Shown one piece after another: positions 3,148 through 6,424 of a stretch of DNA of 15,128 nucleotides. Where the stretch lies: IMG/VR virus record IMGVR_UViG_2663762996_000003, positions 1-15,128 of that record; one strand, given 5' to 3'. Below the pieces are notes generated by a model. That model was not told the origin of the DNA and made no database searches. It saw nothing but the letters and a program-made list of their open reading frames with translations. The stretch comes from a virus (Duplodnaviria > Heunggongvirae > Uroviricota > Caudoviricetes). Position numbers and translations under genes: made by a program. Positions within the stretch are counted from its first letter, which is position 1. Each line of letters starts with the position of its first letter.

Positions 3148-4387
3148 TGTTCTTTTCGGGATTATTTCAACGAAAAAGCGATGTGCCGGTGACCACGCCA
3201 GCAGAACTGCTGATGCTATCGGGCTGTCATACGACACCTATACCGGAAAGCGGATCAGTAGCCAGCGGGCCATGCGCCTGACGGCGGTCTATTCTTGCGT
3301 CAGGGTGCTGGCAGAGTCTGTTGGTATGCTGCCCTGCAGTCTCTACAAAATCAGCGGTACCCTGAAAACACGGGCGGTGGATGAACGACTGCATAAGTTG
3401 GTTTCGGCAAAACCTAATGGCTACATGACACCGCAGGAATTCTGGGAGCTGGTTATTGTCTGCCTGTGTCTACGGGGGAATTTTTACGCCTACAAGGTAA
3501 AGGCACTGGGAGAAGTGGTGGAGCTTCTTCCGATAGATCCGGGCTGTGTGGAACCGAAGCTGAACAGCCAGTGGCAGCCGGTTTATCAGGTGACGTTTCC
3601 GGATGGTTCCGTGGATGTGTTGACCCAGAATGAAATCTGGCATGTGCGCACCCTGACGCTGGATGGACTTGTCGGGCTGAATCCCATTGCGTATGCGCGT
3701 GAGGCCATTTCACTGGCAGCGGCAACCGAGGAGCACGGTGCCAGGTTGTTTAGTAATGGTGCGGTGACATCCGGTGTGTTGCGTACGGAACAAAAGCTCA
3801 CGCCGGATGCTTACGAGCGTCTGAAGAAAGATTTTGAGGAGTGTCACACGGGGCTTGGCAATGCTCACCGCCCGATGATTCTGGAAATGGGGCTGGACTG
3901 GAAGTCGATGGCGCTGAACGCCGAGGACAGTCAGTTCCTGGAAACCCGCAAGTTTCAGCTGGAAGAAATCTGTCGTCTGTTCCGGGTGCCGTTGCACATG
4001 GTGCAGAACACCGATCGCGCCACCTTCAACAATATCGAAGAGCTGGGGCTGGGATTTATCAACTATTCACTGGTGCCGTATCTGACCCGCATCGAACAGC
4101 GGATCAACACCGGACTGGTACGAAAAAGTAAGCAGGGCGTTTATTACGCCAAATTTAACGCCGGGGCGTTACTGCGCGGGGATATGAAGTCCCGTTTTGA
4201 AGCCTACGCCACCGGGATCAACTGGGGAATTTACTCTCCCAATGACTGCCGCGACCTGGAAGATATGAATCCGCGTCCCGGTGGGGATGTCTATCTCACA
4301 CCGATGAACATGACCACGAAACCATCCGATGGCAGTAAAGCCGGTAAGCAGAAGGATAACGCCAATGCAGACGAAACAACGTCTTGA
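3147..4387 (+). CDS. Portal protein, HK97 family; apparently frameshifted near 3221-3224 (frame 0 start, remainder in frame 2)
   Basis: The frame-2 body (RAMRLTAVYSCVRVLAESVGMLPCSLY... to stop 4387) looks portal-like. A perfect GGAGG (3135-3139) sits 7 nt before GTG 3147, and the frame-0 translation from there ([26 protein letters not shown]) is protein-like but stops at 3279-3281. One extra G in the GGG run at 3221-3223 would join the two frames. The ORF-track start at 3056 ([15 protein letters not shown]) overlaps the membrane ORF and reads like an off-frame product. Confidence 0.8.
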
Positions 4388-4660
4388 TGTACCGCTGAGT
4401 CTGAAATCTGTCAGTGACTCCGGTGAGTTTGAAGGGTATGGCTCCGTCTTTGGTGTAAAGGACAGCCACGATGATGTGGTGATGTCCGGGGCATTTGCTG
4501 CTTCCCTGCGGGCGTGGAGTGACAGAAAAGCGTTACCTGCGCTGCTCTGGCAGCACCGCATGGATGAACCCATCGGTGTTTACACCGAAATGAAGGAAGA
4601 CGATGTCGGGCTTTACGTCAGGGGACGGTTGCTTATTGATGATGATCCCCTCGCAAAACG
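4275..4660. repeat. Direct repeat copy 1 (386 bp: portal 3' end plus protease 5' end)
   Basis: Direct comparison with 6039-6424 shows 383/386 identity; the mismatches are at 4285, 4324 and 4339. Confidence 0.9.
4365..4660 (+). pseudogene. Prohead protease 5' fragment, truncated at the IS junction (reading frame runs on into IS sequence to 4757)
   Basis: The translation is identical to the N-terminus of the downstream intact protease up to ...LLIDDDPLAKR, then diverges at 4661 into unrelated sequence. Confidence 0.7.
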
Positions 4661-4662
4661 AA

Positions 4663-4696
4663 ATCCGGAAACAAGTGAGCGTTTCCGGATTTTTTT
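4663..4696 (+). terminator. Intrinsic-terminator-like hairpin immediately upstream of the transposase ATG
   Basis: Perfect 10-bp stem ATCCGGAAAC (4663-4672) / GTTTCCGGAT (4681-4690) with an 8-nt loop, followed by a T-run to 4696 that abuts ATG 4697. Confidence 0.5.
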
Positions 4697-6025
4697 ATGC
4701 ACATTGGACAGGCTCTTGATCTGGTATCCCGTTACGATTCTCTGCGTAACCCACTGACTTCTCTGGGGGATTACCTCGACCCCGAACTCATCTCTCGTTG
4801 CCTTGCCGAATCAGGTACTGTAACGCTACGCAAGCGCCGTCTTCCCCTCGAAATGATGGTCTGGTGTATTGTTGGCATGGCGCTTGAGCGTAAAGAACCT
4901 CTTCACCAGATTGTGAATCGCCTGGACATCATGCTGCCGGGCAATCGCCCCTTCGTTGCCCCCAGTGCCGTTATTCAGGCCCGCCAGCGCCTGGGAAGTG
5001 AGGCTGTCCGCCGCGTGTTCACGAAAACAGCGCAGCTCTGGCATAACGCCACGCCGCATCCGCACTGGTGCGGCCTGACCCTGCTGGCCATCGATGGTGT
5101 GTTCTGGCGCACACCGGATACACCAGAGAACGATGCAGCCTTCCCCCGCCAGACACATGCCGGGAACCCGGCGCTCTACCCGCAGGTCAAAATGGTCTGC
5201 CAGATGGAACTGACCAGCCATCTGCTGACGGCTGCAGCCTTCGGCACGATGAAGAACAGCGAAAATGAGCTTGCTGAGCAACTTATAGAACAAACCGGCG
5301 ATAACACTCTGACGTTAATGGATAAAGGTTATTACTCACTGGGACTGTTAAATGCCTGGAGCCTGGCGGGAGAACACCGCCACTGGATGATACCTCTCAG
5401 AAAGGGAGCGCAATATGAAGAGCTCAGAAAACTGGGTAAAGGCGATCATCTGGTGAAGCTGAAAACCAGCCCGCAGGCACGAAAAAAGTGGCCGGGACTG
5501 GGAAATGAAGTGACAGCCCGCCTGCTGACCGTGACGCGCAAAGGAAAAGTCTGCCATCTGCTGACGTCGATGACGGACGCCATGCGCTTCCCCGGAGGAG
5601 AAATGGCGGATCTGTACAGTCATCGCTGGGAAATCGAACTGGGATACAGGGAGATAAAACAGACGATGCAACTGAGCAGGCTGACGCTGAGAAGTAAAAA
5701 GCCGGAGCTTGTGGAGCAAGAGCTGTGGGGTGTCTTACTGGCTTATAATCTGGTGAGATATCAGATGATTAAAATGGCGGAACATCTGAAAGGTTACTGG
5801 CCGAATCAACTGAGTTTCTCAGAATCATGCGGAATGGTGATGAGAATGCTGATGACATTGCAGGGCGCTTCACCGGGACGTATACCGGAGCTGATGCGCG
5901 ATCTTGCAAGTATGGGACAACTTGTGAAATTACCGACGAGAAGGGAAAGGGCCTTCCCGAGAGTGGTAAAGGAGAGGCCCTGGAAATACCCCACAGCCCC
6001 GAAAAAGAGCCAGTCAGTTGCTTAA
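4697..6025 (+). CDS. insG: IS4 transposase (DDE family)
   Basis: 442 aa beginning [40 protein letters not shown]..., which matches my memory of E. coli IS4 InsG essentially along its length. Confidence 0.9.
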
Positions 6026-6038
6026 CTGACTGGCATTA

Positions 6039-6151
6039 GTCCCGGTGGTGATGTCTATCTCACACCGATGAACATGACCACGAAACCCTCCGATGGCAGT
6101 AAGGCCGGTAAGCAGAAGGATAACGCCAATGCAGACGAAACAACGTCTTGA
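6039..6151 (+). pseudogene. Portal gene 3' remnant (no start, duplicated C-terminal coding segment)
   Basis: Corresponds base-for-base to portal 3' end 4275-4387, including the TGA at 6149-6151. It begins directly at the IS right end. Confidence 0.6.
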
Positions 6152-6424
6152 TGTACCGCTGAGTCTGAAATCTGTCAGTGACTCCGGTGAGTTTGAAGGG
6201 TATGGCTCCGTCTTTGGTGTAAAGGACAGCCACGATGATGTGGTGATGTCCGGGGCATTTGCTGCTTCCCTGCGGGCGTGGAGTGACAGAAAAGCGTTAC
6301 CTGCGCTGCTCTGGCAGCACCGCATGGATGAACCCATCGGTGTTTACACCGAAATGAAGGAAGACGATGTCGGGCTTTACGTCAGGGGACGGTTGCTTAT
6401 TGATGATGATCCCCTCGCAAAACG
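6039..6424. repeat. Direct repeat copy 2 (386 bp)
   Basis: Near-identical to 4275-4660 at a constant offset of 1764 bp. Confidence 0.9.

Follow-up and report, generated by a model that had tools for sequence, protein, structure and literature searches.

An IS4 element in a Shigella sonnei prophage lacks its left inverted repeat and lies between two 386-bp direct repeats that represent different phage alleles, an arrangement that may have arisen through homologous exchange with an IS-free related phage combined with one illegitimate, hairpin-associated join; we give this reading a probability of about 0.5. The window, that is, the whole stretch of DNA analysed, is an entire 15,128-bp contig from a short-read draft assembly of S. 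sonnei, GCA_001259355.1, generated in a high-throughput project. It was compared with L041 (GCA_900457235.1), the IS4-truncated prophage remnant locus of standard S. sonnei, with a second standard locus (L038), and with L003, a common, HK97-like and IS-free E. coli prophage. The standard S. sonnei path runs from GTCCCGGTGGTG directly into TAATGCC at the left end of IS4, and from GGCATTA at its right end into CAGCCCTTGAGC. The features of the window that enter the argument are the following.

1-3961, plus strand: left part, resident S. sonnei prophage remnant (R-type), nearly identical to L041, with S. sonnei-type T3931 and G3961
3272-4387, plus strand: portal ORF as called, 371 aa (PF04860 match)
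3962-4660, plus strand: L003-type E. coli-prophage allele tract covering the portal 3' end and the protease 5' end (100% identity)
4275-4660, plus strand: direct repeat copy 1, 386 nt, G/A/A allele (100% L003-type)
4365-4757, plus strand: chimeric ORF with the first ~99 prohead protease codons and 31 IS4-leader codons (partial Peptidase_S78)
4661-4680, plus strand: fold-back segment AAATCCGGAAAC-AAGTGAGC, the exact reverse complement of IS4 nt 61-80 (against the L041 IS4)
4681-6038, plus strand: IS4 nt 69-1426, with the right hairpin arm, T-run, transposase gene and right inverted repeat (identity to L041 and L038)
4697-6025, plus strand: IS4 transposase (InsG-like), 442 aa, intact ORF (PF13006 and PF01609 matches)
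6021-6038, plus strand: IS4 right terminal inverted repeat CTTAACTGACTGGCATTA (IS4 comparison)
6039-6050, plus strand: right copy of the 12-bp target-site duplication GTCCCGGTGGTG (left junction of L041/L038 against the right junction of the window)
6039-6424, plus strand: direct repeat copy 2, 386 nt, with T/C/G in its first 65 nt (segment b, 6039-6103)
6129-6779, plus strand: complete HK97-type prohead protease, 216 aa (PF04586 match)
6425-9726, plus strand: rest of the protease, capsid and head-tail genes (100% identity to L003-type E. coli prophages)

The window is a mosaic of resident and E. coli-type prophage sequence. Positions 1-4284 are 99.93% identical to L041, differing at only three sites (1905, 1918 and 4238), and positions 1-3961 hold the Rz end, HNH, TerS, TerL, a 60-aa ORF and most of portal. 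G1905 was found on this contig alone; it lies in a GG-rich context prone to Illumina error and hints at weak read support. T3931 and G3961 are restricted to S. sonnei-type copies, all other relatives having C and T at these positions. From 3962 to 4660 the window is also 100% identical to six further reference loci and carries C4238, G4285, A4324 and A4339, where standard S. sonnei has T4238 and T4285, which places the switch from R-type to L003-type sequence between 3962 and 4237. In L003-type prophages, 6425-9726 is contiguous with 3962-4660, and once a 1,764-nt unit is removed from the window, 3962-9726 aligns to L003 with zero mismatches in an ungapped comparison. Over 6039-7600, the 11 best-matching E. 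coli genomes reach 99.8% identity and none of 5,426 genomes reaches 100%, the sole mismatches to L003 (one of those 11) being three sites in 6039-6103. Pfam matches, gene tables and 97-99% identity to SfIV, SfII, SfI and ST64B confirm the HK97/SfII-like head module order of HNH, TerS, TerL, portal, S78 protease and HK97-fold capsid.

The initial annotation had recognized an IS4-type element, and its identity to IS4 bears this out, although the element is not complete and nt 1-60 are missing. Identity to E. coli IS4 is 98.9%, and the 1,358 nt at 4681-6038 are 100% identical to the same-locus IS4 of L041 and L038, with 1-9 differing sites in the other Shigella-type and E. coli IS4 copies that were fetched. 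The transposase contains the Nterm_IS4 (PF13006, 3e-33) and DDE_Tnp_1 (PF01609, 8e-32) domains. The right one of the 18-bp terminal inverted repeats is present, whereas the left one, TAATGCCGATCAGTTAAG, is absent together with nt 1-60. The standard left junction reads CGTCCCGGTGGTG/TAATGCC in both L041 and L038, the right junction of the window reads GGCATTA/GTCCCGGTGGTG, and in standard S. sonnei the left inverted repeat is intact and adjoins the left partner GTCCCGGTGGTG. No 11-13-bp duplication directly flanks both ends as such in the contig; the 12-bp GTCCCGGTGGTG is reconstructed across genomes, and many measured IS4 duplications end in GGTG, as it does. The founding event was an ordinary IS4 insertion, with a 12-bp duplication, into the portal 3' end of an HK97/SfII-like prophage, and it has become fixed in S. 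sonnei. A standard duplication had been named beforehand as evidence against an unusual origin; one does exist for the founding insertion, and it is visible only against the left junction of standard S. sonnei. IS4 behaved normally in any case, with a 12-bp duplication and a GGTG-ending target, and no new transposition chemistry is implied.

The direct repeats first reported at 4275-4660 and 6039-6424 are indeed 383/386 identical, with a start-to-start spacing of 1,764 nt and a similarity far beyond chance. Their three mismatches (4285 G/T, 4324 A/C and 4339 A/G) all fall within the first 65 nt, and copy 2 matches copy 1 exactly over its remaining 321 nt (segment S). Intact prophages, that of E. 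coli APEC O78 among them, match the T/C/G allele at 100%, and one more reference locus agrees with it at the three sites. Judged by these bases, the two copies are natural alleles and did not arise by duplication of one sequence and subsequent mutation. The earlier statement that this is not a simple IS4 footprint was upheld, since 12 un-rearranged IS4 copies have duplications of 11-13 bp, and aligning related phages and prophages without the IS, as had been proposed, revealed one copy of the 386-nt segment in all of them. Insertion of IS4 into a pre-existing 386-bp tandem duplication, one of the origins originally put forward, or an abnormally long 386-bp staggered cut would account for the gross picture alone, an IS between long direct repeats. 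After insertion into a tandem duplication the copies should carry the same allele and IS4 should have both its ends, neither of which holds, and both proposals are scarcely credible given that the copies are different natural alleles, that the left boundary is not an IS end, that the true target duplication is 12 bp, and that no tandem duplication of the segment occurs among hundreds of relatives.

The left boundary of the element has a distinct structure. Window positions 4285-4680 (396 nt) stand in place of TG plus IS4 nt 1-68 and comprise 376 nt from the phage and then 20 nt of inverted IS4. This fold-back sits at the IS4 terminator hairpin, with the left junction at 4660/4661, where no base is shared: the donor continues with CGCAC and the window has AAATCC. 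Since G occupies this position in native IS4, A4661 can be derived only from the side of the T-run. The native IS4 loop GCTCACTT occurs in 18/18 Shigella-type copies. The flipped loop is seen neither in these 18 nor at any of the ~4,000 E. coli IS4 places, so it belongs to the left junction and is not a polymorphism. An IS4 lineage variant with an inverted loop was considered and rejected, as the 18/18 scan matches were antisense, which makes their loop the native GCTCACTT and that of the window truly flipped. The boundary at 4660/4661, as read from these alignments, is an illegitimate junction inside IS4 at the hairpin with the loop inverted, and not an IS end. A Chi-generated end at 4660 was discarded, since no Chi site lies less than 1.5 kb from the junction, as was a transposase pseudo-end at 4661, which bears no likeness to TAATGCC. 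The left junction turned up in no other assembly searched, and neither junction was found in complete E. coli genomes, phage records, viral contigs or metagenome contigs; the arrangement as a whole was absent from the complete E. coli genomes and phage records searched.

This structure bears directly on another proposed origin, recombination between IS copies, in which two IS4 elements, one at 4275-4286 and the other at about 4660, would have undergone unequal homologous recombination in two related prophages. Such an event would leave a single IS4 at the join, bordered by the 386 nt lying between the two sites; it accounts for the overall layout and for the allelic difference between the copies, but it predicts an intact IS4 left end (TAATGCC) directly after position 4660, whereas the element lacks nt 1-60 and has nt 61-80 in inverted orientation. 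It would still require a further deletion and the fold-back, no relative with an IS4 insertion at about 4660 is present among complete E. coli genomes and phage records, and the flank CTCGCAAAACG is unlike measured IS4 targets. Tandem duplications made by IS-by-IS recombination are recognized by a complete IS at the join and by the same allele in both copies; here 60 nt are missing at a join that carries the fold-back, and the copies are G/A/A and T/C/G, both natural. Recombination between IS copies is accordingly very improbable.

Homologous exchange with an IS-free relative would proceed differently. The IS4-disrupted prophage of this isolate would have recombined with an IS-free, E. coli-type phage, and the differing alleles of the repeat copies support such a second related phage, as the initial annotation had suggested among its options. 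On the portal side the exchange would be homologous, with the crossover between 3962 and 4237, and the incoming allele would cross the old insertion site and the portal 3' end and continue into the protease up to 4660. There it would have been joined without homology to the broken left end of IS4, which may have been degraded back to the terminator hairpin, folded onto its own inverted repeat and filled in. Fold-back and fill-in would make 4661-4680 the reverse complement of IS4 nt 61-80, lengthening the stem from 11 to 12 bp and flipping the loop. Two routes can be envisaged: a break at the left inverted repeat could have been repaired with the IS-free phage as template and closed by an illegitimate end join, in the manner of aborted gap repair or homology-facilitated illegitimate recombination, or a looped-out 1,764-bp circle containing IS4 and 386 nt could have undergone Campbell-type integration. 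The product by either route would be an immobile IS4 that lacks its left inverted repeat and should be unable to transpose, placed between 386-bp repeats of two alleles.

The exchange is favored by the continuity of the 15-kb contig, which is unbroken at every fork that would be expected from a co-resident second phage copy, and by the consideration that a de Bruijn assembly should require reads containing the left junction. In addition, insert sizes usually exceed the 321 nt of the exact repeat, which should therefore have been resolved correctly by read pairs. Against the exchange, the structure has been seen once, and its history calls for another phage in the same cell and no fewer than two exchanges. 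The IS-free reconstruction is a 100% natural 4-kb haplotype, which is also what would be expected from an assembler traversing a graph loop. The illegitimate join lacks microhomology, and enteric bacteria are not known to have classical end joining. A repair-based version of events, which we consider unlikely, starts from a double-strand break at or near the left end of IS4, possibly made by the transposase, and from resection to the hairpin. The 3' strand would snap back there and be extended to give a hairpin-capped end, whose opening 12 nt off-centre would leave a palindromic footprint. Off-centre opening of this kind is analogous to the formation of P-nucleotides in V(D)J recombination. 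A strand templated by a co-infecting, IS-free phage would then be joined to the opened end without homology, disarming the IS and rebuilding the portal 3' end in a single step. If true, this would be a natural case, in a bacterium, of synthesis-dependent repair that aborted and ended with hairpin-mediated end joining.

The main competitor is an artefact, an option raised at the outset that stays live as the window is a whole short-read draft contig, and it is a substantial possibility that falls short of an even chance. Here a turn of an assembly-graph loop (S, left junction, IS4, b, S) would have been placed into an IS-free path by a mis-threaded or chimeric assembly, the agent being the assembler, a scaffolder or a gap-filler. 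The sample would then contain a contiguous L003-type path (its own allele of the 65-nt segment, S and downstream sequence) and IS4-linked R-type pieces elsewhere or at lower abundance, and the left junction may stem from fold-back chimeric reads formed at the multi-copy IS4 hairpin during library preparation. In keeping with this, the contig comes from a high-throughput short-read project, its structure is unique among all assemblies searched, and common E. coli prophages match the ~4 kb of IS-free reconstruction at 100%, the three differences lying in the 65 nt that adjoin IS4. The contig also traverses a multi-copy 1.4-kb IS, whereas other S. sonnei drafts give a partial portal short of the IS4 junction, which we read as contigs ending at IS4, and the contig-specific G1905 points the same way. 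Sonicated Illumina libraries are known to yield inverted-loop reads at inverted repeats (PMC10908179), and the inverted-loop signature fits such a sonication and end-repair artefact. However, an artefact cannot account for the right junction, which has a perfect 12-bp duplication, so IS4 adjoining the T/C/G portal remnant was physically present in the sample. Known fold-backs give a palindrome (through GCATAAAAAAATCCGG) and not protease position 4660 directly abutting AAATCCGG, and there is no shared sequence between 4660 and AAATCCGG on which an overlap merge could act. Usable k-mer depth across the junction would be required for a de Bruijn contig, forks at 3962, 4238 and 4285 should have fragmented the contig if a second phage copy, co-resident or contaminating, had been there, and a 321-nt repeat is normally resolved by read pairs.

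The Logan contig ERR987424_663 was considered as a possible second assembly of this isolate and rejected. Its bases differ from those of the window at 3931, 3961, 4285, 4324 and 4339, its capsid gene diverges by ~6%, and it represents a separate IS-free relative with the S. sonnei-type portal frameshift. The exact tail-tube protein of the window has no Logan source, ERR987424 being the sole independent assembly found, with different DNA. If the arrangement is an artefact, it is a warning about long "target duplications" around IS elements in short-read drafts, as two phage alleles and a multi-copy IS can form an assembly-graph loop.

Compared with known systems, the element shares with IS4 (insG of E. 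coli K-12, expanded in Shigella) 98.9-100% identity, the 442-aa DDE transposase and the right inverted repeat, but it lacks nt 1-60, has nt 61-80 inverted and has no flanking short duplication of its own. The standard S. sonnei remnant has the same HNH-TerS-TerL-portal order, portal frameshift, IS4 copy and target site. There, the IS4 left end is intact and chromosomal DNA of the raiA/pheA side lies to the right of IS4, whereas the window has the 396-nt replacement on the left and a portal remnant, protease, capsid and tail genes on the right. Phages of the SfII/SfIV/SfI, phi467 and ST64B types and related E. coli prophages have a portal-protease-capsid module that is 97-99% identical; in these phages and in L003 there is a single 386-nt segment and no IS, unlike in the window.

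Snap-back (quasi-palindrome) junctions of tandem inversion duplications have reportedly been described by the Roth laboratory in Salmonella and E. coli. They would resemble the window in combining a direct duplication with a short, hairpin-centred segment in inverse order at the join, but the copies in the window are different alleles and no inverted central copy is left. Among processes documented in E. coli, homology-facilitated illegitimate recombination (PMC3240628) comes close, the foreign tract here having a homologous junction in 3962-4237 and a non-homologous one at 4660/4661. That process usually involves 3-10 nt of microhomology (PMC3240628), of which the window junction has none, and the hairpin fold-back footprint lies outside the described pattern. 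The inverted-repeat chimeric reads of PMC10908179 resemble the window in that the sequence between the arms is reverse-complemented and the downstream strand is kept; those artefacts, found in human capture data, are low-frequency read ends that continue as a palindrome and do not join an unrelated locus. IS expansion drives genome decay in Shigella (PMC7373316). If real, the window would hold a clean natural footprint of DNA exchange between an IS-disrupted prophage and an incoming relative, events that in Shigella are usually inferred and not seen, and it would indicate that a hairpin within an IS can host an illegitimate join that permanently immobilises the element.

The phage genes on both sides of IS4 had been described as complete. 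For portal this holds at the 3' end only; loss of 1 nt near 3208 puts the first ~22 codons out of frame with 413-aa homologues. The frameshift was recognized by alignment with truncated S. sonnei portals and the L003 portal, and nucleotide alignment showed the deletion, which is common to all S. sonnei copies. IS4 inserted 79 nt ahead of the protease ATG, and the imported sequence extends 374 nt beyond that point, a geometry that makes an intact portal 3' end and an intact protease automatic. Selection for a viable phage as the driver of the rearrangement was considered and is weakened by the portal 5' frameshift and by this automatic outcome. The truncated protease (4365-4757) and the portal 3' remnant (6039-6151) are both as originally described. 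The chimeric ORF at 4365-4757 is most probably non-functional, and its protein occurs on this contig only, forming a cluster of 1 among about 15 billion proteins. The downstream protease is complete, as had been claimed, and the exact 216-aa protein is present on at least 1,000 contigs.

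The sequence comprises the whole of contig CXFI01000117.1 (15,128 bp) from the draft assembly GCA_001259355.1, whose proteins are labelled Shigella sonnei, and this draft-contig origin made an assembly artefact a real possibility at the outset. The IS4 sits among head genes of HK97 type (HNH, small and large terminase, portal, S78 prohead protease and capsid), a module matching Shigella phages SfIV, SfII and SfI and Salmonella phage ST64B at 97-99% identity. The IS4 shares 98.9% identity with the E. coli element and lies between two direct repeats:

4275-4660: direct repeat, copy 1, 386 nt
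4697-6025, sense strand: IS4 transposase ORF, 442 aa, intact, with Nterm_IS4 and DDE_Tnp_1 domains
6039-6424: direct repeat, copy 2, 386 nt, start-to-start spacing 1,764 nt

The repeat coordinates and mismatch counts of the initial annotation were exact on re-checking; the three mismatches (4285, G in copy 1 and T in copy 2; 4324, A/C; 4339, A/G) all lie inside the first 65 nt.

The portal of this prophage is normally truncated in S. sonnei (336-343 aa, in at least 1,000 contigs) and ends in ...NPRPGG-VMPIS*, where the portal frame runs on into an intact left end of IS4. The left junction reads ...CGTCCCGGTGGTG/TAATGCC in two S. sonnei chromosomes (L041, GCA_900457235.1, with the standard resident prophage remnant, and L038, CP180008.1), and the right junction of the window, GGCATTA/GTCCCGGTGGTG, has these 12 nt at an identical point of the portal gene. 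The shared 12 nt therefore constitute a perfect 12-bp target duplication, and the founding IS4 insertion is an ordinary one. Target duplications in 12 un-rearranged IS4 copies measured 11-13 bp, the range previously taken as usual for this element, and the earlier view that the 386-bp repeat is not a simple insertion footprint is borne out, the real target duplication being 12 bp. Many of the measured duplications end in GGTG, as in CTCCCCCGGTG, CTGCCGACCGGTG and CAGCATTCTGGTG. At the portal site the T allele (GTCCCGGTGGTG) matches this pattern, whereas the G allele common in E. coli (GTCCCGGTGGGG) departs from it, so that IS4 may insert less readily into E. coli-type phages. Positions 1-4284 differ from the standard remnant only at 1905, 1918 and 4238, and 4681-6038, which corresponds to IS4 nt 69-1426 only, is 100% identical to the IS4 copy at the same locus in standard S. 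sonnei. This near-identity limits the anomaly to 4285-4680, a segment that stands in place of 'TG' plus IS4 nt 1-68.

Reference IS4 copies are 1,426 bp long and start with TAATGCCGATCAGTTAAGG. In the window the left inverted repeat is absent, and 4661-4680 (AAATCCGGAAAC-AAGTGAGC) matches IS4 nt 61-80, taken as the reverse complement, at every base. This stretch overlaps a terminator-like hairpin (IS4 nt 50-79, just 5' of the transposase ATG) whose loop reads GCTCACTT in sense orientation in all 18 Shigella-type IS4 copies recovered and is flipped in the window; none of about 4,000 IS4 places in 5,426 E. coli genomes has a flipped loop. The stem measures 12 bp against 11 in native IS4 because A4661, a position at which native IS4 has G, pairs with the T-run. 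The joint at 4660/4661 shows no microhomology. The missing IS4 start, the inverted nt 61-80 and the flipped loop together identify 4660/4661 as an illegitimate junction within IS4, with a fold-back signature. The initial annotation of 4661-6038 as an IS4 element thus stands as to identity (98.9-100%), but 4661 is a fold-back junction and not an IS end. A recombination event joining IS4 insertions at 4275 and ~4660 was rejected, as the intact left end that it predicts is missing. Although IS4 by sequence, the element lacks one defining feature, the pair of terminal inverted repeats, and is predicted to be immobile. The rebuilt hairpin (4662-4696; 12-bp stem, 8-nt loop, T7 tail) still immediately precedes the transposase start codon (ATG at 4697), with a folding energy of -22.1 kcal/mol versus -21.1 kcal/mol for the native form; it was not flagged by a simple terminator scan, and should keep terminating read-through out of the truncated protease ORF.

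The repeat copies represent two distinct alleles. Copy 1, with G/A/A at 4285, 4324 and 4339 plus C4238, shows no difference from IS-free E. coli prophages, among them the common prophage L003. Copy 2 (T/C/G) shares 100% identity with other intact prophages, for example that of E. coli APEC O78; the relatives L025 and L044 also carry T/C/G. T3931 and G3961 occurred only in S. sonnei-type copies among the relatives compared. With the 1,764-nt unit (one repeat-to-repeat step including IS4) taken out, 3962-4660 plus 6425-9726 is 100% identical to L003 across ~4.0 kb, and in the contig as written 6039-7600 differs from L003 only at the three sites in 6039-6103. The resulting mosaic comprises, in order:

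up to 3961: S. sonnei-type sequence
from 4238 or earlier, to 4660: E. coli-type sequence
4660/4661: fold-back junction
resident IS4
65 nt with a third allele pattern (T/C/G)
E. coli-type sequence, second time

The mosaic boundaries relative to L003 are sharp. Mismatches are dense to ~3808, sparse in 3814-3961 (9 sites) and zero in 3962-9726; a single mismatch follows at 9727, and in the interval 11070-11200 a divergent block from 11070 onward starts just ahead of the tape-measure gene and reaches its first codons. Both a 386-bp staggered cut and IS4 insertion into a pre-existing tandem duplication were rejected on the 12-bp duplication, the differing alleles and the non-IS left boundary.

Alignment of IS-free relatives for copy number, as proposed earlier, gave one segment copy and no IS per relative in hundreds of E. 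coli genomes and phage records, and the arrangement itself occurred in none of the complete E. coli genomes or phage records searched. Neither the left nor the right junction was found in viral or metagenome contig collections, and the ORF across the left junction is unique among ~15 billion proteins. One IS-free counterpart is L025 (Logan contig ERR987424_663, run ERR987424; 3,038 bp), in which protease and capsid come straight after a portal whose protein is identical to that of the window. At the DNA level the two are not the same, which rules out a second assembly of the isolate and makes it an independent IS-free relative; with its S. sonnei-type portal including the frameshift, T/C/G allele and ~6% divergent capsid gene, it resembles the pre-insertion S. 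sonnei prophage in another head-module background.

These data are best explained by a real structure born of contact between the IS4-disrupted prophage and an IS-free relative, to which we assign a probability of roughly one half. A homologous exchange within 3962-4237 of the portal gene would have been accompanied by illegitimate joining of the incoming strand, ending at 4660, to a broken left end of IS4 after resection of that end to the hairpin, snap-back and fill-in; transposase cleavage at the IS4 left end is a natural candidate for the break. We infer the order of events, the break source, the fold-back chemistry and the co-residence of a second phage. With the insertion site 79 nt 5' of the protease start codon and an imported tract reaching 374 nt past that site, the geometry yields an intact portal 3' end and protease without selection. 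No new transposition chemistry is required. Homology-facilitated illegitimate recombination is documented in E. coli (PMC3240628). The process most resembles this or aborted gap repair, but differs in its lack of microhomology and its hairpin fold-back footprint. That footprint is presumably also akin to the snap-back junctions of tandem inversion duplications.

A misassembly, somewhat short of an even chance, would have threaded one turn of a graph loop (from the identical 321 nt through the left junction, IS4 and 6039-6103 back to the 321 nt) into a contiguous E. coli-type phage path. It would fit the single occurrence of the structure, the natural 4-kb haplotype, free of mismatches, that is left when the unit is taken out, the passage of the contig across a multi-copy IS where other S. 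sonnei drafts give only partial portals ending before the IS4 junction, and the contig-specific G1905 in a typical Illumina error context. A library artefact that flips sequence between inverted-repeat arms has also been described (PMC10908179). However, the right junction with its perfect duplication has to be physically real, known fold-back artefacts yield a palindrome and no join to protease position 4660, and 4660 offers no common sequence for an overlap merge. In favor of the real structure, the 15-kb contig is continuous where a second phage copy would make forks, an assembler requires junction-containing reads, and the 321-nt exact repeat lies inside read-pair range. The feature is either a misassembly or an IS4 rearranged on a single occasion in a hybrid prophage. 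Among the origins proposed initially, a second related prophage gains support from the differing alleles of the two copies and an assembly artefact is still live, while recombination between IS copies and a tandem duplication have fallen away.

The intact portal 3' end and protease might suggest a rescued phage, a reading made doubtful by a frameshift in the portal 5' region (3144-3275). A 1-nt deletion at ~3208 (GAACT-GCTGATG versus GAGCTGGCGGATG in relatives), common to all S. sonnei copies, shifts the first ~22 portal codons relative to 413-aa homologues, so that gene callers begin the portal at M43 (3272). Its presence in L041 and in IS-free L025 places the deletion before the IS4 insertion and in more than one phage background.

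In standard S. sonnei, chromosomal DNA (raiA, pheA, tyrA) lies right of the resident IS4 and the prophage right half is lost. The right-hand structural proteins of the window are common E. coli prophage proteins, with the exact tail-tube protein found elsewhere only on four metagenome contigs, a distribution indicating that the right half is not part of standard S. sonnei. The raiA-side flank in L041 (14985-15000, CAGCCCTTGAGCTGCC) is the reverse complement of the sequence adjoining the left inverted repeat of an IS4 in S. flexneri SFBU1023 and in strain ECMA0423; one chromosomal site thus holds IS4 in different species with different IS ends facing it, which suggests a recurrent target and loss of the right half via recombination between IS4 copies. 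In L038 (14681-16012), the portal-resident IS4 is itself broken near its nt 1123, where an IS of ~1.3 kb with an rve-type transposase gene has inserted, and the right flank is another chromosomal site (bamE/recN side), so the locus has been rearranged more than once. In the large terminase, G1905 (GGGA[T>G]GGGGG, a GG-motif context) replaces M229 with R and occurs on this contig alone (T in 12 of 12 relatives checked), C1918 is synonymous and shared with 2 of 12 relatives, and the combination makes the 577-aa terminase unique in the protein collection.
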